DNA from: an uncultured Gemmatimonadales bacterium
GTDB taxonomy: Bacteria > Gemmatimonadota > Gemmatimonadetes > Gemmatimonadales > Gemmatimonadaceae
Direction: 5' to 3'
Assembly: GCA_963701965.1 (NCBI GenBank)
Contig: OY969695.1
Span: forward strand, 3,904,001 to 3,968,000
DNA: 64,000 bases
The translations under genes were made by a program, and so were the position numbers. Below the pieces are notes generated by a model that did not search any database, was not told the origin of the DNA, and was given only the letters and a program-made list of their open reading frames with translations. This document shows positions 37,832 to 52,187 of this stretch, piece by piece. Each line of letters begins with the position of its first letter. The stretch's first letter is position 1.

Positions 37832-38867
37832 ATGCGGTATCGCACGTTCCCGGGGACCGGCGTCACGGTCAGCGAGATCGGGTTCGGCAACTGGACGACG
37901 GCGACCGGCTGGTGGGGCGAGCACGACGATGCCTCGGCCGTCGCGCTGCATCGCCAGGCTCTGGACGACCACGGGATTACGTTCTTCGACACCGCCGATG
38001 CCTACGGCAACGGACGCGGTGAACGCCAACTCGCCGAAGCGTTTCGCGGCCGCCGCCCGGACGTCGTCTACGCCACGAAGATCGGGTACGACATTTATGA
38101 CGCCGAGGCGCTGCGCGCCCGGCGGGGCCAGTCCGAGCTGCCGATGCGGACGGACCCCGCGTATCTGCGTCATGCGGTCGAGCAGTGTTTGGGCCGGCTC
38201 GAGACCGACTACATTGACGTGCTGCAGATTCACAACGTGAAGATGGAGCACGTGCGCGACGCCCAGCTGTGGGACACGCTGCGCACGCTCAAGGCCGAGG
38301 GGAAGATCCGGGTGTGGGGCGCCGCGTTCGGTCCCGCGATCGGTTGGCTCTACGAGGCCGTCGAGCTGTGCGAGCGGGAGACGGACATCGGGATGATCCA
38401 GATGATCTGGAACGTGCTCGAGCAGCACCCCGGCACGGCGATGATCGACGCCGCCCGTCACACCGCGCCGGAGTGCGCGTTCACCGTGCGCGTGCCCCAC
38501 GCGTCGGGGATGCTCGAGGGGAAATACACCGAGGACACGGTGTTCCCGGAGAACGACCATCGGCGTCATCGGCCGCGCTCGTGGCTGATCAACGGCCTGC
38601 AGAAGATCCGGACGCTCGATTTTCTGACGACCGACCGGACGCTGGGGCAGGCCTCGTTGGGCCTGGCTCCTGCGCGAGCCATTGGTCGTGTCGGCGTTGC
38701 CGAACATTGACGACGCCGGGCAGCTCGCCGAGTTCGCGGCGGCGGCCGATCAGCCGGCGTTGTCCCCGGCGCAGCTCCAGCACGTGGCGGCGCTGGCCGA
38801 GAACAATTTCGGGGTGACGGAGCCGCCGATGGCGTACAAGGGCACCATGCAGCGGGCCGGCGTGTGA
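37832..38867 (+). CDS. Aldo/keto reductase (apparent +1 frameshift at about 38660)
   Basis: FFDTADAYG, ATK, LETDYIDVLQIH; removing one G of GGG 38659-61 continues ASLAWLLREPLVVSALPNI to the stop at 38867. Confidence 0.85.
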
Positions 38868-40550
38868 AAGGCTTCGCTCTCGGTGCGGCCCTCGTTCTGG
38901 CGGCCTGCGCTCCGCGCTCCGACGGGTATGATCTGATCATTGCCGGTGGGCACGTCGTGGACGGCACGGGGAATCCGTGGTTTACGGGCGACGTGGCCAT
39001 TCGCGGGGACCGCATTGTCCGCGTCGCGCCAGCCGGCGTCCTGGCCGGCGCGCCGGCGGCGCGGCGGATCGACGCCACCGGTCTGGTCGTCGCGCCGGGC
39101 ATCATCGACATCCAGGGCCAGTCCGATTCGGCCTTTCTCCTGGGCGATGGCCGGGTCGTCAGCAAGGTGACCCAAGGCATCACCACGGAGATCCTGGGCG
39201 AAGGCGACACGCCGGCGCCCGCGAATGCCCGGACCCTGGCGCTCGATGCCGCGAACGACACGACCATGGCCCGCGTGGACGCCGGGTTTGCCGGCACGCA
39301 TGGCTTCGATCGCTGGCTCACGGCCATGGGTCAGCACGGCATCTCCGGAGAACGTGGGCTCGTTCGTCGGCGCGGCCACGATCCGCAAGTATGGCAAGGG
39401 GGCCGACACGGGCGCGGCGACGCCGGCGCAGCTCGACACCATGCAGGCCGCCGTGCGGCGCGCGATGGTCGACGGCGCCTTCGGCCTCGGGAGCGCCTTG
39501 ATCTATCCGCCGGGCGCGTACGCGTCGACGGACGAGCTCATCGCCGAAGCCAAGGCGTCGTCCCCGTATCACGGCGTGTACATCACGCACATGCGGTCCG
39601 AAGGTGATCATTTGCTGGACGCCGTGGCCGAGGCGATGCGCATTGGTCGCGAAGGGAGCGTCCCGGTCGAGATCTATCACCTCAAGGCCGCCGGCGTCCG
39701 CAACTGGCCGCTCATGACAAAGGTCATCGCGGCCATCGACTCGGCCCGCGCCGCGGGACAGGACATCGGCGCCGACATGTATCCGTACGAAGCCGGAGCC
39801 ACCGCGCTCGTCGCCTGCCTGCCGCCCTGGAGCGCCGCGGGCGACAGCACGCTCGCCAACATCGCCGATCCGGCCACGCGGAAACGCATCACGGCGGACC
39901 TCTTGAACACGCACACGGCGTGGGAGAGCCTCTGCCAGCTGGCCACACCCCAAGGCGTGATGGTGGTGGGTCTCCGCGCGCCGGCCGACCAGCCGTACGA
40001 AGGGCTCCGCCTCGCCGAGATCGCGACCCGCGAGCACACGACGTGGACGGAGGCGCTCATGAACGTCGTGGCCCGCGAGAAGGGGCTGGCCGGGGCCGAA
40101 TTCTTCATCGCCAGCGAGAAGAACATCACGCTGCAGATGCAGCAGCCGTGGCTCAAGTTCGGCACGGACGCCGACGGCACGGACCCGGATTCGCTCAAAG
40201 GCCTGGCCCACCCCCGGAGCTACGGCGCGTATCCGCGCATCCTCGGCCGCTACGTGCGCGACCAGCACGTGCTCGGGCTGGAAGACGCGGTGCGCAAGAT
40301 GACGTCGGCGGTCGCCGAACGGCTGTCGATCTTCGACCGCGGCACGCTCCGCGAAGGGGCCTACGCGGACGTCATCGTCTTTGATCCGGCCACCGTCATC
40401 GACCGGGCCACGTACGACAAGCCGAATCAGATCTCGGTTGGCATGCGCGAGGTGTTGGTGAATGGCGTCGAGGTCGTGCGGGACGGCAAGCACACGGGCG
40501 CCAAGCCCGGCCGCGTCGTGCGCGGACCGGGCTACACTCCGCAGGCCTGA
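38864..40550 (+). CDS. N-acyl-D-amino-acid deacylase family lipoprotein (apparent +1 frameshift at about 39345)
   Basis: Lipobox LAAC, VVDGTG, QGITT, LIYPPG, THMRSE, HPRSYG, ADVIVFD; split across two ORFs. Confidence 0.85.
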
Positions 40551-40553
40551 CCG

Positions 40554-42646
40554 TTAGCGGGCGGCCGCGCGCTCCGACGTTCCCAGGTGCCGGTCGAAGT
40601 ACTCGGCGGCCGCGTTGAGCACCCGCACCCAACTCCGATAGAGGAGCAGATCGTGCACCTCATTGGGGATGATCATCTGCTCGAAATCGATGCCGTGCGC
40701 GCGGAGGCCCTCGATCAGCTCGGGCGCTTGCGCATACGGCACGTTGCGATCGTCATCGGCCTGGATCACGAGCACCGGTGAGCGCCAGTCCTTGATCGAG
40801 GCCATGGCCGAGGACTGCCAGGCCATGCGCGCGGGAGCGACCGTGGTGTCCGTGGGCGGCGGGAAGAGCATTGCCCGCCAATCGTGCACACCCGCGTAGT
40901 CCACGCCGGCGGCGTACAGATCGGAGAAGCGCGCCAGCGCCAAGGCGGTCATCAGCCCTCCGTAGCTCGCGCCCCACACGCCGAGCTTTCCCGGGTCGAC
41001 GTCCGCGCGGGTGCGGAGATAGAGGCCCGCGCCCTGGATGTCGTTGGCCTCGCTGGAGCCCGCGGGACCGAAGTCCGGTGGCCGGCGGAAGTTCAAGCCG
41101 TAGCCGATGCCGCCGCGATAGTTCACCGAGAGCACGACGTAGCCCCGGCTCGCCAGGTACTGATTCATGGCGTACATGTAGCTGTAGGCATCCATTCGGT
41201 GCCATCCCAGGAGCATTTGCCGGATGGGGCCCCCGTGGAAAAACACGATGGCCGGGTGTCGCGCGGCCGGTCCGTTCGGCACGAACAGTTGCCCGTGGAT
41301 CATGAGGCCGTCCGCCGACGAGAAGACCACCTGCTGCGGCACCACCAGCTTCGGCGCCGGGAAATCGGCCGGGATCGCGTCACTCGCCAGGTCGGTGATC
41401 TGGCCATTCGACGTCACGATCGCGACGTGCATCGGGCGTCGCGCATCGGACCGCAGGATCGCGGCGGCTTTGCCGTCGCTGATCCCGGCCGGATACGTCT
41501 CGATCCCCTGTCCTGGCGTCAACTCCGCCGGAGCGCCGCCCGATAGCGCGACCCGCCACACATGCTGGCGGTCGATGTCGCCGGCATTGCCGGCATAGAG
41601 CATGGCCGACCGGTCGGCCGTCATTGCCGCGGCGAAAATCTCGCACTCACCGCTGGTGAGCGCGACCGGCGCGCCGCCCCGCGCGGAAATCGCGTACAGC
41701 TGGAGCCAGCCCGTGCGCTCCCACGGGAACACAATGCGGTCGCCGGCGCCCCACGCCAGCTGCTGCTCGGACTGCAGGGGCTGAAAGATGCTGCCGGCCT
41801 GTTCGCCGGCGTGCCACAGCTCGTGCCCCTGACCCGTGGCCGCATCGGCGATCCAGATCGACCAGGGTCGCCCGGTGCGCGACTGCAGGAAGAAATCCTC
41901 GTGACCGACCGGTACGCGTACGAAGGCGAGGCGCGTCCCATCGGGCGACCACTCCGGGTGCGCGTCGCGGTCGACGCTGGGCGCCATCCAGACGACGGAC
42001 TTCTGTGCCACGTCGTAGACGCCGACGAGACTATGGTCGTTGCGCTGGCTCACAAACGCGAGGCGCGCCCCGTCCGGCGACCACGCCAACGAGAGCATGT
42101 GTCCCTTCTCGACGATGAGCGCCTCCGCCTTGCCACTGCCGTCCAGGTGCGCGGCCCAGATTTGCCCCTGGGCGAGATACGCGACCAGGTCCCCCTTGGG
42201 CGACACGGCGGGTGCGCGGCCGTCGCCGAGCTTCCTCGGCGTCGGATCCGAGACGGCAGCCGTCCAGAATGCTCTGGTCAATGTCGCCTTTGGGTGAGCT
42301 CAGGAGGTTCGTGCGGGTCCCGGCACCCAAGCTCCCGCGCACGTAGATCACCCGCTCGCCATCCGCGCTCCACGCCAGGTCACCGATCTCCTGGCCGTCA
42401 TCTCCGCTGTACGCGGTCAGGGCGCGGCCGTGATACGATCCATCGGCGGACGGCTCGGCGATCCAGACATTGCGGCTGCCTTTGGCGTCGAACACCCAGG
42501 CCACGCGGTTCTTGGCCGGTGCGGCGATGAGATCCGACGGGAACGGGGCGCTCAGCACCTGATCGATGGTGAATCCACGATCCTGCCCCGCGGCGATCGC
42601 TGGGGTCAACAGGACGCCGATAGCGAACCATTCTCGCGAGCTTCAT
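40554..42646 (-). CDS. S9 family serine peptidase with beta-propeller (two apparent frameshifts, about 42631 and 42269)
   Basis: Signal peptide after repair, WSPDG repeats, HGGP, GASYGG, DDRNV, EVH. Confidence 0.85.
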
Positions 42647-45393: not shown

Positions 45394-46644
45394 TCAACCC
45401 GCTCGCTGAAAGACCAAGGACGCGTTGATCCCGCCGAACCCGAACGAATTGGAGAGCACGTAGTCGACGCGCCGTGGCCGGCCGGTCGCGGGGATGTAAT
45501 CGAGATCGCACGAAGCGTCGGCCTGTTCCAGATTGATCGTGGGCGGCAGCCACTCATGCTGCAGGCTGAGCGCGCAGATCGCTGCCTCGATGGCACCCGA
45601 TGCGCCGAGGGCATGACCGTAATAGCCCTTGGTGCCACTCACCGGCATGCGATACGCCCAGTCGCCGAACACCTGCTTGATCGCCGCCGTCTCCGTCGGG
45701 TCGTTGAGTGGCGTCGAGCTCCCATGCGCATTCACGTACCCGATCTCCTGGGGCGTGACCTCGGCGTCTCGAAGGGCCAGGCGAATCGAGCGGGCCGCCT
45801 GCTCTCCGGAGGGGAGCGGCGCCGTCATGTGATACGCATCATTGGTCGTGCCGTAGCCAATGATCTCGGCGTAGATCGGCGCGCCGCGGGCCACCGCGCG
45901 CGTGTACTCTTCCAGCACCAGCACCACGGCCGCCTCGCCCATGACGAACCCATCGCGGTCCTTGTCGAACGGTCGCGACGCATGCGTGGGGTCGTCGTTC
46001 CGCGTCGACATCGCCCGGATGAGCGCGAACGCGCCGTAGCAGAGTGGGGCCAGCGGCGTCTCGGCGGCGCCGCACAGCATGATGTCGGCGTATCCATCGC
46101 GGATCTGCCGAAAGGCCTCGCCGACCGCCATCGTCCCCGACGCGCAACTCATCGCGTTCGTCGAGTTGGGCCCCGAGATGCCGAACTCGATCGCGATGTT
46201 GCAGCTCGACGCGCCGCCGTACACGGCGAGCGCGACGATCGGGTCGACGGCGCGCAGGCCGGCGCTCAGGAAGCGCCCCAGTTGCTCCTCGGCGAACGCG
46301 ACGCCGCCCAACGCCGATCCCATCATGGCGCCGGCCCGGTCGCGATCCTCGCGCGCCAGGTCGAGTCCCGAGTCGGCCAGCGCCATGCGGGCCGCGACGA
46401 CGGAAAACTGCCCAAACCGGTCCAGTCGCTTGGCCCGCTTCGACTCGACGTGGTCACTGGCCACGAAATCCCGGACTTCGGCGGCCGTCTTGCTGCGGAA
46501 CGGCGTGGCATCGAACCGGGTGACCGGCCCGACGGCCGATCGCTCGCCGCGGAGACCCTCCCACAAACCGTCCCGCGTGAGGCCAATTGGTGTCACGGGG
46601 CCGATGCCCGTGACGGCCACGCGGCGGCGGCGGCCGTTATTCAT
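45394..46644 (-). CDS. Beta-ketoacyl-ACP synthase II-like ketosynthase
   Basis: VAVTGIG, MSCASG (Cys), NAHGSST and GHALGASG (His, His), SNSFGFGG. Confidence 0.9.
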   Translation of the reverse strand: MNNGRRRRVAVTGIGPVTPIGLTRDGLWEGLRGERSAVGPVTRFDATPFRSKTAAEVRDFVASDHVESKRAKRLDRFGQFSVVAARMALADSGLDLAREDRDRAGAMMGSALGGVAFAEEQLGRFLSAGLRAVDPIVALAVYGGASSCNIAIEFGISGPNSTNAMSCASGTMAVGEAFRQIRDGYADIMLCGAAETPLAPLCYGAFALIRAMSTRNDDPTHASRPFDKDRDGFVMGEAAVVLVLEEYTRAVARGAPIYAEIIGYGTTNDAYHMTAPLPSGEQAARSIRLALRDAEVTPQEIGYVNAHGSSTPLNDPTETAAIKQVFGDWAYRMPVSGTKGYYGHALGASGAIEAAICALSLQHEWLPPTINLEQADASCDLDYIPATGRPRRVDYVLSNSFGFGGINASLVFQRAG

Positions 46645-47154
46645 GCGCCCTCTCCGCGCTCAGCCACAGCGGCCAGGCCCGCCAGAGTGCGCGATGCGAT
46701 GCCGTGCACGAAGATCGGTCCGACCACGGCGCGCGCGGCCACCGGGCCGATGACCGGCCACGGCGGCCCGTTCCAGACGTGCGTGATGCGTACGTGCGTG
46801 TGGCGCGAGTCGGCCAGCGGTTCAAACGACCAGAGAACGTCCATGCCCGTGGTAATACCCTCAATGTGACGGAACCGGATGGAGACGTCGAGATCGTCTC
46901 CACCCTCTCCCCGACACGTTTTCATTCTCAGATACCCACCACGTTGGCCAATTAATCCATCCGCCCCCGAATGGACGGTTCGCGGACATCTCTACAATGT
47001 CCCGGTTGCGAAACCGGACGAACCGATAATGCGGCAGCAGAGCCGGCCAACGTTCAACGTCTCGAGCTAGTGCGAATATTCGTGCCCGCGGCGCGCGAAC
47101 GACCAATTCGTCGATGACCGTCATGCGACGGTCGGTAGGCATGGGTCCGATCAT
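46641..47154 (-). CDS. SRPBCC/polyketide cyclase-like protein (apparent +1 frameshift at about 46925)
   Basis: IFALARDVERWPALLPHY, VEMSANR, WWVSE then MKT..IRFRHIEGITTGMDVLWSF; ATGA-coupled at both ends. Confidence 0.78.
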
Positions 47155-47867
47155 GGCGAGCCCGGAGACCAGCTCGCGGTAATGCGGAATCCCGGATGCC
47201 GCCGGACACTGGCCGCACACCCCGTCGCGTTCTGGATCACCGCACCGAGCTCGTCCGGAGAAAATCCGCGCCGGATCGAGACCATACCGTCGTGCCGGCT
47301 CACGGGATGAAATCCCAACACGAAGGACGAGAGCCACAAGCCGACAATGGCGAGCTCGGATCGCACCAGGTCGCTCACGATGACGCGGACGCGGGCTACG
47401 CGGTCGAGCTCCTGTACCAGGCGCCGGGCGTCATCCCCAAAGAAATGGTGGAGCACCTGGGAGCAGATGACGATGTCCACACTGCGATTGGCGAAAGGCA
47501 AAGCACGACCATCGCCCACCACCGCCGTGGTGGTGTCGGCTCGCCCTGCCGCCGCCAACCATTCCGCCGCTTCCAGCCCAATGGTCTGCAGCCCGACGCC
47601 ACTGCGGGCCGCCATCTCCCGGGCGCGCTTCGGGATGTCACCGAGACCGGTGCCGACGTCCAGCAGTGACGCGCACCGCGGGAGTCGTGGCAAGCGTGGC
47701 AGGGTGTCCGAGAGCTCGGACAGCACCGCCCGGGTGCCTCCGAACAAGGCGTTGGCGAGCGCGACGTCGCGCAGCGAGCGACGCGCCAGCCCGGGATCGA
47801 TGTCCGGGTCATCCAGTACTTCGACCCCTTGGGGCCGTCGCTCACCGTTCGATCTGTGCGTACCCAC
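47151..47867 (-). CDS. SAM-dependent methyltransferase (start uncertain)
   Basis: EVLDDP, NALFGG, LLDVGTGLGD, SQVLHHF, DLVRS, HDGMVSIRRGF. Confidence 0.85.
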   Translation of the reverse strand: MGTHRSNGERRPQGVEVLDDPDIDPGLARRSLRDVALANALFGGTRAVLSELSDTLPRLPRLPRCASLLDVGTGLGDIPKRAREMAARSGVGLQTIGLEAAEWLAAAGRADTTTAVVGDGRALPFANRSVDIVICSQVLHHFFGDDARRLVQELDRVARVRVIVSDLVRSELAIVGLWLSSFVLGFHPVSRHDGMVSIRRGFSPDELGAVIQNATGCAASVRRHPGFRITASWSPGSP

Positions 47868-48318
47868 CTCGGTAGTACAGCAGCGGCGTCGCCGCGCGGG
47901 TCTCCGCGCGCTCCACCTCTCCGATGAATATGGTGTGGTCGCCGCCCGGAATGGCTTGCGTCAGTCGGCATTCGAGGAAGGCGAGTACGTCGTCGAGGAT
48001 CGGGGCGCCCGACGCGCCGCGCGAAAACCCCACGCCCTCGAACCGATCCGTCTCGGGCGCCGCGAATCGCCGGCCGATCGCTTCCTGTGCCTCTGACAGA
48101 ATGTTGACGGCGAAGTGCGTCGCGGTCTCGAGCGCGGGCAAGAGCGACGCGTCGTGGTCGATGCACACGAGCACGAGCGGCGGTTCCAGGCTGAGCGAGG
48201 CGAACGCGTTCACCGTCAATCCATGATCCTGCGCCTGGGCGTCGCGGGCGGTCACGACGGTGACCCCAGTTGCGAAGCGGCCCAGCACGCTGCGAAACGC
48301 ATCGGGGTCGAGAGTCAC
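47842..48318 (-). CDS. Flavin reductase family protein
   Basis: FRSVLGRFATGVTVVT, SLSLEPPL, GGDHTIFIG, PLLYYRGGY. Confidence 0.93.
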   Translation of the reverse strand: MTLDPDAFRSVLGRFATGVTVVTARDAQAQDHGLTVNAFASLSLEPPLVLVCIDHDASLLPALETATHFAVNILSEAQEAIGRRFAAPETDRFEGVGFSRGASGAPILDDVLAFLECRLTQAIPGGDHTIFIGEVERAETRAATPLLYYRGGYAQIER

Positions 48319-49520
48319 GAGGCGAGCAGTTTGAGCAGGTAAGAGGGGCGGAGGACCTCCCGTGCCGGCACGAAGTCGCCGGCGACGCCCACCAGCAGAT
48401 CGGCCATGTCCGGGTGCCGGGACAGCGCCAGGGCCGCGCGGTTCATGACCGCCGGATAGTGGACGGCGACACCGATGGCCCGTTCGACCAACCACTTCGC
48501 GCCGAACTCGTGCTGCCGGCAGCGCTCGTACGCCGCGAGCGCGATATCCGCGCGCCGTGCCGTCGTCGCGCGCGCCGCTTCCACCGCGTACGGGAGCACG
48601 AGCTCCCCGCCACGCAGGGCGGCATAGATGCCCTCGCCGGTAAACGGGTCGAAGAAATCGGCGGCGTCGCCCACGAGGGCTGCCCCCGGCGCCCACGCTC
48701 TCAGCGCATGCTGCGCGAATGGTCCGGTCACCCGCACTGGCGAGACGCGCGTCGCGCCGTCGAACCGCGGCGCCAGGTGGGGGCGGCGGGCCAGCCACGC
48801 CTGGAGGAACGCCGCCGGCTCGCCGCGGATGAGCCGCGCCGAACGCGCGGGCACGACGAGCGCGACGTTCGTCGCGCCATTCCCCACATTGGCGAGCCCC
48901 ACGTAGCCATCGCGTTCCACGTGCATCTCGCCGCAGGCGCCGATGCGCGACACGCCCCGGTAGTGCGTCACCAGCGCGATCCGCCGCGGCCAGGCGCGCG
49001 CGTGGGCCAACTGCAGCCGCCGCGCGACCGTCGATCGCAGCCCATCGGCGCCCACGACGAGGCGCGCACGCATCGTCCCCGTGGCTGTCGTGACTCCCAC
49101 GACCCGGCCGCCGTCTCGCCGCACGTCCATTACGCGGACGCCTTCGGCGACGCGCGCGCCCAAGGCGCGCGCGCGAGAGAGGAGCAGGGCGTCGAGATCG
49201 TATCGCCGCAAGGCCAGGCCCCGATCGCGAAAACCGCGGAAGCCGTGAGCGGCGGCGAATTCCCCGTGGATCTCCGCGCCATTGGGCGCGCGCACGACCA
49301 TGCCGGACAGCTGCGCGGCGCCGAGGGCTTCCGCGTGCTCGAGCGCGCCCATGTCCGCGAGGATACGCGAGGCCTGCGGACTCAAGTACTCGGCGCACGC
49401 CTTGTCGCGCGGAAAATTCGCCCGGTCGAGCACCAGGACGTCGACGCCGGCGCGCGCCAGTGCCCACGCGGTTGCCGCCCCCGCCGGTCCACCGCCCACG
49501 ACAATGACCTCGGCTTCCAT
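48315..49520 (-). CDS. FAD-dependent oxidoreductase (geranylgeranyl reductase/monooxygenase-like)
   Basis: VGGGPAG, FPRDKACAE, GADGLRS, VGDAADFFDPFTGEGI. Confidence 0.88.
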   Translation of the reverse strand: MEAEVIVVGGGPAGAATAWALARAGVDVLVLDRANFPRDKACAEYLSPQASRILADMGALEHAEALGAAQLSGMVVRAPNGAEIHGEFAAAHGFRGFRDRGLALRRYDLDALLLSRARALGARVAEGVRVMDVRRDGGRVVGVTTATGTMRARLVVGADGLRSTVARRLQLAHARAWPRRIALVTHYRGVSRIGACGEMHVERDGYVGLANVGNGATNVALVVPARSARLIRGEPAAFLQAWLARRPHLAPRFDGATRVSPVRVTGPFAQHALRAWAPGAALVGDAADFFDPFTGEGIYAALRGGELVLPYAVEAARATTARRADIALAAYERCRQHEFGAKWLVERAIGVAVHYPAVMNRAALALSRHPDMADLLVGVAGDFVPAREVLRPSYLLKLLAS

Positions 49521-50317
49521 CAGCGTGCGATCCCTCCCCAGACACTGGCCGCCGCGCCGAGGGCGCTACTCACGGTGTTGACGCCATTGTTCGTAAGCCA
49601 CGGGACCCCGCCCACGACCGTCGTCGCGGCGCCGCAGGAGTGCACGGCACGTTCCGTCGCCGCCCCACATTTGGCGCACCATCGCCGCGCTTGTACGGTC
49701 GCTCCCAGGATCGAGTCCACGGTCGATCCGATTACACCGCCCACCACCGCGGCGATGGCTATCAAAAGCGGCCAACGCATCGCGACGGCCGTTCCGGCCA
49801 CAAAAATGGCGCCGGCGACCGCGGCCAGCGTGCCCGGGAGACTCACGCCACCAGATGTGCCGGGCGGCACGACGCGACCCGTACGAATCGAGCGCGGCCG
49901 GGTCGCCACCAACGTGCCGACTTCGGTAGCCCACGTGTCGGATGTCGACGCGGCCAGCGCCCCGGCGCCCAGCGCCTGCCAAACCGGCGCGGGATGGACG
50001 ATAAACGCGACGGCGCAGGCCGTGAACACACCGCCGTTGGCCAACACCTGGACGGCGTCCCGCGCGCCGCCTTTCGCGACGACCGATCCGGTGCGCGCGT
50101 CCTTTACCGCGCGGCCGAGACGCGAGAGGAGCGTGGACGCGAGAAAGAACGCGATCAAGAGCGCGCCCCAGTCCCAGCCGGCGGCCACGCACAGGGTGCC
50201 GACGATCGTGGCGCACGCCGCACCGGTCGCCGAGAGCGCGTGTGCGCGCCGCGCGGCGAGCGCGATGGCGAGCGCCACGACGAGTCCACCCGCGGCACGG
50301 ATACCGAGCGCGCTCAC
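49520..50317 (-). CDS. DUF92 (TMEM19/VTE6-like) membrane protein
   Basis: RDAVQVLANGG, DTWATEVG, PPGTSGGVS, DSILGATVQ, NNGVN. Confidence 0.9.
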   Translation of the reverse strand: MSALGIRAAGGLVVALAIALAARRAHALSATGAACATIVGTLCVAAGWDWGALLIAFFLASTLLSRLGRAVKDARTGSVVAKGGARDAVQVLANGGVFTACAVAFIVHPAPVWQALGAGALAASTSDTWATEVGTLVATRPRSIRTGRVVPPGTSGGVSLPGTLAAVAGAIFVAGTAVAMRWPLLIAIAAVVGGVIGSTVDSILGATVQARRWCAKCGAATERAVHSCGAATTVVGGVPWLTNNGVNTVSSALGAAASVWGGIAR

Positions 50318-50387
50318 GCTCCAAGTATAACGGCGCTCAAGTCCGCTTGAATGCGCTGCAGCGCGGCCTTAGCTTCGCACCATCGGT

Positions 50388-51014
50388 ATGCCGCCATCGA
50401 CGGTCGACGCCTTACTCCCTCTCAGTTTTCTCGAAGCCGTTCGGAACGTCGACTCCCCGCAGGACGATCTGGAAGCGGAACTCGTGCCGGAGTTACGGAA
50501 CAAGCGCCTGGGCCTGAGCGAAACGGTCTATGCGCAGATCCGCCGGTATACGGCCGCGGCCAAGCGCAGCCATCGCACGCCTCAAGAGGAGGCGGTGGCG
50601 CTGGCGCGCCTCATTGGCCGCCGGTCCGACGCGGCCGAGGTCTTCGAGTCGGCGGGCCGCATCCTGGCTCGCGAGTCCTTGGCGACGACGTCGCCCATGA
50701 CCCGCCAAGTCATCCTCGTCCTGCCATCGCTCCTCGCCCGACCGCTGGCGCTCCGTCAGGCGCGGCGGATCGCGACGCGGTTCCTGAACGGCACGATCTC
50801 CCGGGTCGGCAGCGCCCTGGTCCTCGACGTGCCGGTGTCGGTGACGCTCGACTCGGCGCCCAACGAACGCGGTTGCGCGTACTACGAATCGGTGCTGCGG
50901 GAGCTCGTGCGCCTGCTCGTCGGGGGCACGGGCGCCGTGGAACACGTGCGGTGCGCCAGTCGGGGCGAAGGCACGTGCGAGTGGCGCGCCGAGTGGCGCT
51001 CGACGGAGCGGTAG
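50388..51014 (+). CDS. Hypothetical protein with V4R-like C-terminus
   Basis: GCAYYESVL...EHVRCASRGEGTCEW three-Cys pattern. Confidence 0.65.
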   Translation: MPPSTVDALLPLSFLEAVRNVDSPQDDLEAELVPELRNKRLGLSETVYAQIRRYTAAAKRSHRTPQEEAVALARLIGRRSDAAEVFESAGRILARESLATTSPMTRQVILVLPSLLARPLALRQARRIATRFLNGTISRVGSALVLDVPVSVTLDSAPNERGCAYYESVLRELVRLLVGGTGAVEHVRCASRGEGTCEWRAEWRSTER

Positions 51015-52187
51015 TTGCTGAGCCCGGCCACGCTTCCCGCGATCCAGTCCGCGCTCGCCGAGATGGGCGTCGACGGCTGGCTGCTGTTCGATTTTCGCGG
51101 GGTCAACCCGATCGCCGCCGCCGTCATCGGGCTCGACGGCTTGGTGACGCGCCGGGTGTTCGCGTTCGTCCCGGCGACCGGCGCGCCGGTGGCGATCACG
51201 CACGCGATCGAGCAGGGGCCGTGGTGGCGATGGCCCGATGGCTGGGGGCGGGAGGTCTACAGCGGGTGGCGCACGCTGGAGGCGGTGCTGGCGCGGTGTG
51301 TTCAGGGGAAGCGGGTGGCCATGGAGTACTCGCCCGGCGATGGCGTCCCCTATGTCGACCGCATCCCAGCGGGGGTGCTCGACATGGTCCGGGCGGCGGG
51401 AGCGGAGGTCGTGTCGTCCGCGGATCTGGTCACGCGCTTTTATGCCGTGTGGACACCGGCGCAGATCGCCGACCATAGCCGCACGGCCGAGATCCTGGCC
51501 GCGGTGGCGCACGAAGCGATCGCGCTGGCCGGGGCCCAGAAGATGACGGAATACGCGCTCCAGCGCTGGATCCTGGAGCGCTTCGCCCGCGCGGGATTGG
51601 TGACGGACCACGGTCCGATCGTGGCGATCGGTCCCAATGCGGCCAATCCGCACTACGAGCCGGCCGAGGAAAGCGCGGCGGCGATCGATCGTGGGGATGT
51701 GCTGCTGATCGATCTGTTCGCCAAGGCCGCTGGCGGCATCTACGCGGATCAGACGTGGATGGGCGTCCTCGGCGCGCCTGACACCCGGACCATCACGGTG
51801 TGGGACGCGGTGCGCGATGCGCGCGACGCGGCGATCGCACTCCTCGGCGCCCGGATCGCCAGCGGGCAGCCCGTGCGCGGCGGCGAAGGGGATGATGCGG
51901 CGCGGGCGGTGATCACCGCGCGCGGATTCGGCCCGCACTTTACGCATCGGACCGGGCATTCGATCGACGCGTGGGATTTGCATGGCTCCGGCCCGAATCT
52001 CGACAACCTGGAGTCCCGCGACGACCGCTTGCTGCTTCCGGGTTCGGCGTTCTCGATCGAACCGGGCGTGTACTTGCCCGGCACGCTGGGCGTCCGCAGC
52101 GAAGTCAATGCGATCGTGCCCGTTTCGGGAGCGACGAATCTGCTGATCACGCCCGCGGCGCCGCAGCGCGATCTCATTATCGCCTGA
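51015..52187 (+). CDS. M24 (Xaa-Pro) peptidase
   Basis: ANPHY, LIDL, YADQT, HRTGH, SIEPGVY, RSE. Confidence 0.9.
   Translation: MLSPATLPAIQSALAEMGVDGWLLFDFRGVNPIAAAVIGLDGLVTRRVFAFVPATGAPVAITHAIEQGPWWRWPDGWGREVYSGWRTLEAVLARCVQGKRVAMEYSPGDGVPYVDRIPAGVLDMVRAAGAEVVSSADLVTRFYAVWTPAQIADHSRTAEILAAVAHEAIALAGAQKMTEYALQRWILERFARAGLVTDHGPIVAIGPNAANPHYEPAEESAAAIDRGDVLLIDLFAKAAGGIYADQTWMGVLGAPDTRTITVWDAVRDARDAAIALLGARIASGQPVRGGEGDDAARAVITARGFGPHFTHRTGHSIDAWDLHGSGPNLDNLESRDDRLLLPGSAFSIEPGVYLPGTLGVRSEVNAIVPVSGATNLLITPAAPQRDLIIA

Follow-up and report, generated by a model that had tools for sequence, protein, structure and literature searches.

Positions 45394..50317 of a 64,000-nucleotide stretch from an uncultured Gemmatimonadales bacterium (the window) raise the question of what a FabF-like ketosynthase (KS) makes in company with a cyclase-like SRPBCC protein and a set of tailoring enzymes. 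Six coupled minus-strand genes are found here, encoding a DUF92 protein, an FAD enzyme, a flavin reductase, a methyltransferase (MT), the SRPBCC protein (also called the cyclase below), and the KS. An initial annotation had described six overlapping genes, and the open reading frames (ORFs) confirm this, with overlaps from DUF92 to KS of 1, 4, 26, 4, and 4 nt. As also claimed there, no acyl carrier protein (ACP), chain-length factor (CLF), FabG, or FabZ occurs among the six. The cassette to which these genes belong is real, uncharacterised, and present across several bacterial phyla. From gene comparison, we give a probability of about 0.5 to the core cassette making a long-chain alkylresorcinol-type membrane lipid (possibly a hydroquinone or quinone), with the KS and cyclase taking the place of a type III polyketide synthase (PKS).

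No description of the cassette was found in the literature as represented by titles and the beginnings of abstracts, most subscription papers and supplements being out of view. Annotations hide it, with the KS listed as an ordinary FabF and the cyclase as a RatA toxin. A catalogue of type II PKSs admits only systems whose KS and CLF are paired within 2 kb and, in the available part of the paper, lists 14 phyla, Gemmatimonadota not among them; surveys of this kind would miss the cassette (PMC10132072).

A four-gene core within and beyond Gemmatimonadales

The relatives compared are Gemmatimonadaceae or Gemmatimonadales according to their names in the genome collection. G012, an unpublished genome among these, contributes a single row to the tallies, to alignments A1 and A5, and to two trees, and none of the claims rests solely on it. 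The KS and cyclase genes are adjacent in all 30 relatives, which also have, where contigs reach far enough, the MT (28/29), flavin reductase (26/27), FAD enzyme (26/26), and DUF92 (23/24). Among 80 loci found through the cyclase, the corresponding numbers are 79/79 for the KS, 77/78 for the MT, 72/73 for the reductase, 69/71 for the FAD enzyme, 56/61 for DUF92, and 38/66 for an aquaporin gene. Neither an ACP (tblastn with AcpP) nor a type III PKS was found in any of these 80 loci, and the small ORFs of cassette loci have no ACP motif.

Among 251 genomes of the phylum, 165 encode the cyclase; for the order the figure is 152 of 170, meaning that about nine-tenths of the sampled genomes of this common soil order carry the cassette. 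It occurs in 2/16 and 2/38 genomes of two other Gemmatimonadota families, and in 0/18 genomes of four more. All eight cyclase-less genomes that were checked are also without the cassette KS, with KS scores only at the level of FabF (420–467 bits) as compared to 534–804 bits for cassette KSs. The KS and cyclase are lost together.

Six loci in three other Gemmatimonadota families have the order MT-FAD-SRPBCC-KS. A further 80 loci were found in metagenomes with distant cyclase homologues, many of them on short contigs. Where there is room, the KS follows the cyclase in 68/78 of these, the FAD enzyme precedes it in 43/65 and the MT in 30/44, and the full set MT-FAD-SRPBCC-KS is present in 25/39. 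DUF92, the flavin reductase, ACP (tblastn with AcpP), type III PKS, and aquaporin were each found in 0/80 of these often short loci. The conserved core consists of the MT, FAD enzyme, SRPBCC protein, and KS, while DUF92 and the flavin reductase are lineage-specific additions. The genes that the initial annotation had grouped are kept together across the order, and four of them beyond the phylum.

Neighbors of the core differ between phyla. One full copy of the cassette falls into a 90% cluster with the cultured species Sphaerobacter thermophilus, and the cyclase of L198 clusters with proteins of this species. The KSs of L196 and L206 cluster with Chloroflexota-labelled proteins, and the KS of L231 shares 70–80% identity with proteins that carry the labels Bacillati ANGP1 and Armatimonadetes. 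Other members of the cyclase family are labelled Paenibacillus catalpae and Candidatus Velthaea (protein labels alone). Single database proteins (P0003 and P0131) fuse the MT or the FAD enzyme to the cyclase. Searches of plasmids with two members of the cyclase family gave no matches. At L261, L263, and L268, genes for an ABC transporter and a CrtC-like lipocalin come after the cassette and may serve in export; the L261 and L263 cyclases are 57% identical to a Candidatus Velthaea protein. A cyclase homologue without a KS stands beside an ICMT-type methyltransferase or a P450 at L197, L202, L234, L238, L239, L248, and L254.

Part of the synteny within Gemmatimonadales is inherited gene order, because an unrelated divergent V4R gene, along with an M24 peptidase gene, is syntenic with the cassette in 56/57 loci. 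In the window, these two genes lie at 50388-52187, the V4R-domain protein having a weak BchJ-like match. The cyclase gene of the window is not a single ORF here. It consists of two overlapping frames of 97 and 94 amino acids, with an extra base breaking the frame at ~46926. The frameshift is likely an assembly error, because both halves are in one frame in 29/29 relatives holding both, and because 4 of 36 genes tested in the source genome (G000, a single-contig assembly) are frameshifted. Taken to the extreme, the equal synteny of the V4R and peptidase genes would mean that the grouping is inherited order without one pathway; or else the pathway may be decaying in this genome with a truly broken cyclase gene, as one partial DNA read run leaves the frameshift site uncovered. 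We consider these explanations very improbable, given that the four-gene core recurs in other phyla among different neighbors, start/stop junctions overlap, the other five operon genes are intact, and frameshifts are found elsewhere in the assembly. Within the window, an aldo-keto reductase-like gene (37832-38817) is likewise frameshifted as compared to 19/19 homologous queries, and amidohydrolase-like (38864-40550) and peptidase (40554-42609) ORFs also appear split.

Ketosynthase and SRPBCC protein

On sequence grounds, the window KS is not the housekeeping FabF. It exceeds the cut-off of the FabF model TIGR03150 (519 versus 494 bits), its closest solved structures are FabF, and it has the Cys-His-His triad that the initial annotation had reported. 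Cys167, His307, Lys339, and His344 are kept in 37/37 aligned cassette KSs. However, a separate plsX-fabH-fabD-fabG-acpP-fabF locus exists at 5.03 Mb in the source genome (its first four genes recognised by eye in the translations), and the KS encoded there scores 618 bits on the same model and is 44% identical to the window KS. A further FabF-like gene is found at 3.57 Mb. An orthologue of the window KS is present at 64–87% identity in each of the 30 relatives searched, most of which also have a second KS at 42–48%. Instead of grouping with FabF, the cassette KSs form their own clade in three trees, with support of 98/98 (37 rows), 100/99, and 100/100; CLFs were left out of the latter two trees, and the Apilactobacillus KS out of the last. 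Unlike FabF, the cassette KS has remodelled pocket motifs, lies outside the fab operon, and is lost along with the cyclase.

The cassette KS has KS-alpha-like motifs (GSALG, EAPL, HGSST, and HALGA), is nearer to KS-alpha than to FabF at several sites, and shares the basic helix of both. There is one KS per cassette in the 30 relatives and in the metagenome loci, with no CLF beside it; in L192, a distant second KS is encoded 2.2 kb downstream and does not group with CLF. Placing the cassette KS as the sister of KS-alpha was favored in two trees that were unrooted and without distant outgroups (95/76 and 93/92), and support fell to 48/88 once outgroups were added. Cassette KSs fall outside the KS-alpha clade itself.

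A profile of 20 SRPBCC sequences matches WhiE-ORFVI, BexL, and TcmN (E 3e-7 to 2e-5), which are aromatases/cyclases (ARO/CYCs) of aromatic type II PKSs. The predicted model of an intact orthologue (pLDDT 89) has as its top fold matches ZhuI, BexL, TcmN, and StfQ (Z 18.5–19.5, rmsd 1.9–2.3, 146–149 aligned), with ZhuI at Z 19.5, rmsd 1.9, and 149 aligned. The equivalents of TcmN W28 and Y35 are invariant in the cassette protein. Databases label the family RatA/Coq10-like, and ARO/CYCs rank first by both profile and fold; PDB entry 1t17, which we take to be a Coq10-like protein, came out at E 0.11. An Atlas search returned unnamed SRPBCC clusters alone. The cassette shares with aromatic type II PKSs an elongation-type KS, some KS-alpha-like motifs, and a helix-grip cyclase, but differs from them in having no CLF and no ACP.

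Tailoring enzymes and candidate product

The best plasmid matches of the window MT are found in Deinococcus and Sphingobium, within type III PKS-MT-FAD operons, and a Paenibacillus record without annotation has the same trio. Within Gemmatimonadota, five genomes without a cyclase match have the MT, FAD enzyme, and type III PKS together (L158, L159, L161, L163, and L164). Eight MT residues (E16, D19, D70, G74, H140, H141, D193, and S197) are invariant in 33/33 cassette and 9/9 type III-linked proteins, and a quick tree, from which the MTs of L196, L231, and L165 were left out, interleaves the two kinds (4 changes, 2 forced). Type III PKSs occur in 13/86 genomes without the cyclase and 3/165 with it, counts that include kin and are thus not independent. 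No type III PKS match was found in the source genome (95% complete) or in the 160 cassette loci. The proposal in the initial annotation that a KS and cyclase replace a type III PKS is backed by homologous MT/FAD pairs beside type III PKSs. Replacement in situ was considered and rejected, as G143 and G163 carry their type III PKS operons at another locus and not at the cassette position. The source genome has a second cassette-type MT (G000:C1 853449-854114; L057:7447-8160), 53% identical and alone beside a TetR-like gene, which nests among the family's cassette MTs. Two plasmids, of Sphingobium (L140) and Streptomyces (L274), have operons encoding an ACP, a FabF-like KS, a type III-like PKS, and an FAD enzyme; their KSs fall outside the cassette clade.

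The closest known systems are hidABC, which belongs to the hierridins of Cyanobium, and the planctomycete mtr-fdo-t3pks operons, both of which, in the available parts of the papers, have a class I MT and an FAD oxidoreductase ahead of the chain builder and no dedicated ACP (PMC6836626, PMC8086630, PMC10896814). Their gene order is matched by the core order MT-FAD-SRPBCC-KS and shared by most cassette copies outside Gemmatimonadales. The MT and FAD families are the same as the type III PKS-linked ones that were compared, HidA and HidB themselves being outside the alignment. Where hidABC has a type III PKS, the cassette has a FabF-type KS and a TcmN-type cyclase, and Gemmatimonadales cassettes reorder the genes and add DUF92, the flavin reductase, and often an aquaporin. 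As reported in the accessible text, HidA methylates 5-pentadecylresorcinol (PMC6836626), HidB is proposed to hydroxylate (PMC6836626, PMC8086630), and the planctomycete operons yield pentadecyl- and heptadecylresorcinol with one probable C-methyl (PMC10896814). These operons fit better than srsABC of Streptomyces griseus, the analogue named in the initial annotation. The logic of synthase, methyltransferase, and flavoprotein for a phenolic or quinone lipid is shared with srsABC, in which SrsA is reportedly a type III PKS and SrsB a membrane ICMT-type methyltransferase, whereas the cassette MT is a soluble class I enzyme.

In the pathway we propose, a homodimeric KS would take a fatty acyl group from the host AcpP and add three malonyl units without reduction. 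The SRPBCC protein would hold the tetraketide and direct C2-C7 aldol ring closure to an alkylresorcylate or alkylresorcinol. The MT would add a C- or O-methyl group to the ring, and the FAD enzyme, by analogy with HidB a putative ring hydroxylase, would hydroxylate or otherwise oxidise it, with reduced flavin supplied in Gemmatimonadales by the flavin reductase. DUF92 would be an accessory membrane protein. Borrowing of a host ACP is consistent with acpP being the sole ACP in the native-looking part of the source genome, and ACP-less resorcinol clusters (brt) are thought, in the available part of the source, to draw on primary metabolism (PMC6836626). The other two ACPs (at 126 kb and 145 kb) are in a block at ~20-300 kb (G000:C1; L056, L058) that has atypical tetranucleotide composition, an aryl-polyene-like gene set, and second copies of rpmG, rpmB, trxB, ftsK, lolA, and rarA. 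This block looks, from its sequence, like another bacterium's DNA joined into the contig.

A number of observations weigh against an alkylresorcinol product. The product and its enzyme steps are predicted from gene comparison, and the literature searches turned up no characterised KS of the homodimeric FabF type that iterates without reduction. The sister relation to KS-alpha has support of only 48/88 with outgroups, and an approximately unbiased (AU) test did not reject an origin of the cassette KS from Gemmatimonadota FabF (p-AU 0.149). TcmN R69 and R82 are replaced by invariant Met69 and His81 in 20/20 Gemmatimonadales SRPBCC sequences, and a back-pocket arginine is described, in the accessible part of the report, as critical in active ARO/CYCs (PMC12664062). 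Thebaine synthase, another helix-grip protein, reaches Z 18.1 against the SRPBCC model; because such proteins score nearly as high, fold does not fix function. The cyclase occurs without a cassette KS in G130 and G181 and without a KS in 10/78 metagenome loci, and the KS-cyclase pair occurs without an adjacent MT or FAD enzyme in L179, L185, L186, and the L206 group. The FAD enzymes of the two kinds of operon form separate groups, a weakly supported division (80). G024 carries the cassette plus an MT-type III PKS pair, and the planctomycete oxidoreductase gave no assignable activity in the text available (PMC10896814). By the arginine test, as read from the alignment, the SRPBCC protein is not a member of the ARO/CYCs; it likely works like one on a different, probably shorter substrate.

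Several of these points would suit a KS that is not iterative, and that instead carries out one extension or joins acyl-ACPs head to head, with the SRPBCC protein acting as a dehydratase, releasing enzyme, or Coq10-like lipid carrier and the product being a non-aromatic or pyrone-type lipid. The missing cyclase arginines, the RatA/Coq10-like database label, the cyclase-only loci, and the nearness of the KS to FabF by model score and structure are all in keeping with this, and DarB provides a precedent for head-to-head KSs in the available text (PMC6836626). As described there, DarABC/BrtCD make a resorcinol with a stand-alone KS and a separate aromatase, some clusters being without an ACP as is the cassette; however, DarB belongs to a head-to-head class that lost elongation, whereas the cassette KS scores as FabF-type and has an SRPBCC partner (PMC6836626). 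The family scans assign the KS to FabF and its partner to SRPBCC, and Dar models are absent from their results. Because ARO/CYCs come first by profile and fold, with 1t17 at E 0.11, because the tailoring genes match those of resorcinol operons, and because no ketoreductase or dehydratase partner recurs among called neighbors, we regard a non-iterative KS as about half as probable as the alkylresorcinol pathway.

DUF92 and the FAD enzyme bear on a different product, a prenyl-quinone derived from a short, acetate-primed orsellinate-type ring (made by the KS and cyclase) through prenylation by a UbiA-type enzyme, methylation, and oxidation, with DUF92 recycling prenyl phosphates and a geranylgeranyl reductase (GGR)-like flavoprotein saturating the tail. 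A UbiA-family gene is directly upstream on the same strand in L211, L223, L255, and L259, and convergent, with an O-methyltransferase, in L206, L212, L224, L226, and L228. The FAD enzyme has as its best NCBIfam match the GGR family (TIGR02032) and contains a KxC motif, which 6/8 type III PKS-linked FAD enzymes share. We take DUF92 to be the VTE6 family; the paper listings on VTE6, as far as they were available, do not mention DUF92. Opposing this product, the Gemmatimonadales cassette has no prenyltransferase, the nine UbiA loci are two sets of close kin, and futalosine-pathway-like genes (by eye) are already present behind fabF in the source genome. The prenyl link drawn from DUF92 in the initial annotation is therefore weak, as DUF92 is not part of the core and is absent from all 80 metagenome loci. 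The TIGR02032 scores of the FAD enzyme (139.7) and its L260 counterpart (158.3) are below the curated cut-off of 158.8, and a true GGR was rejected on this basis. A prenyl-quinone seems to us unlikely.

The FAD enzyme and flavin reductase may also be read as a two-component halogenase making a halogenated polyketide. Six of the seven best PDB matches of the FAD enzyme are named halogenases (8zop, E 1e-30), and the flavin reductase is adjacent in nearly all Gemmatimonadales loci. The enzyme behind the chlorination of hierridin C is not known, according to the parts of the papers available (PMC6836626, PMC8086630). The WxWxIP-type motif aligns to GYVGLA in the cassette enzyme, and the conserved Lys to Leu. 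Presumably this motif and the catalytic Lys are hallmarks of flavin-dependent halogenases; with both absent, a halogenase was rejected as the identity of the FAD enzyme. The flavin reductase is also absent outside Gemmatimonadales (0/80 metagenome loci versus 72/73 within), and a halogenated product is therefore highly unlikely.

If the alkylresorcinol pathway is correct, bacteria have a further enzymatic way of making resorcinol lipids besides type III PKS and DarAB. Unreduced polyketides could then be built by a FabF-like homodimer, which would bear on how aromatic type II PKSs originated. A more far-reaching idea, which we put forward only tentatively, is that the cassette represents a widespread but overlooked class of aromatic PKS with one homodimeric KS, no CLF or ACP of its own, and a TcmN-type cyclase that sets chain length and ring closure. 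Such a class could be a present-day equivalent of the stage that preceded the KS-alpha/CLF duplication, and could give most Gemmatimonadales a redox-active phenolic or quinone lipid. The four core genes are small and easily expressed.

Operon features and neighboring genes

The initial annotation had placed the six genes under one TATACT box. The hexamer is indeed present, and is predicted to serve a leaderless transcript, but a sigma-70 scan of the upstream region found no -35 element and no full promoter. The same arrangement of TATACT, 6 nt, and GTG is found in four same-genus genomes (G001, G003, G004, and G005, one appearing twice) and in none of 12 other loci compared. In the source genome, strong -10 hexamers are most frequent at a distance of 6 nt upstream of start codons (97, as compared to ~33–64 at most spacings, and 71 at 7 nt). 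Because the 6-nt spacing is kept in same-genus genomes and coincides with the genome-wide peak, transcription of the operon probably starts leaderless. An alternative ATG/GTG start for the MT at 47845 was rejected as out of frame.

Table. Features of the cassette operon in the window.
Feature	Position	Strand	Remarks
TATACT -10-like hexamer	50324..50329	-	6 nt before DUF92 GTG; probable leaderless promoter
DUF92 membrane protein	49520..50317	-	265 aa; PF01940 7e-63; accessory, Gemmatimonadales-specific position
FAD-dependent oxidoreductase, geranylgeranyl-reductase/halogenase fold	48315..49520	-	401 aa; PF01494; core; HidB-like
Flavin reductase (HpaC-like)	47842..48318	-	158 aa; PF01613 1e-47; accessory
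Class I SAM methyltransferase	47151..47867	-	238 aa; best NCBIfam PRK06202, below cut-off; core
SRPBCC/START protein, TcmN/WhiE/ZhuI aromatase-cyclase type	46641..47154	-	Pfam Polyketide_cyc; frameshifted near 46926; core
Stand-alone elongation-type KS	45394..46644	-	416 aa; Cys167/His307/His344; core

Additional genes accompany the operon in some Gemmatimonadales. An ECF sigma factor and an RsrA-type anti-sigma factor (TIGR03988, over cut-off) head the operon in L043, L044, and L189, and are absent from the window. A B12 radical SAM gene (TIGR04072, below cut-off) is located between DUF92 and the FAD enzyme in 8/58 loci (e.g., L036, L047, and L175), and also adjoins the type III PKS in G045. 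The aquaporin-family (MIP) gene, where present, is downstream of the KS on the same strand (e.g., L043:2307-2987). The window has no aquaporin gene, and a GntR regulator abuts the KS stop instead.

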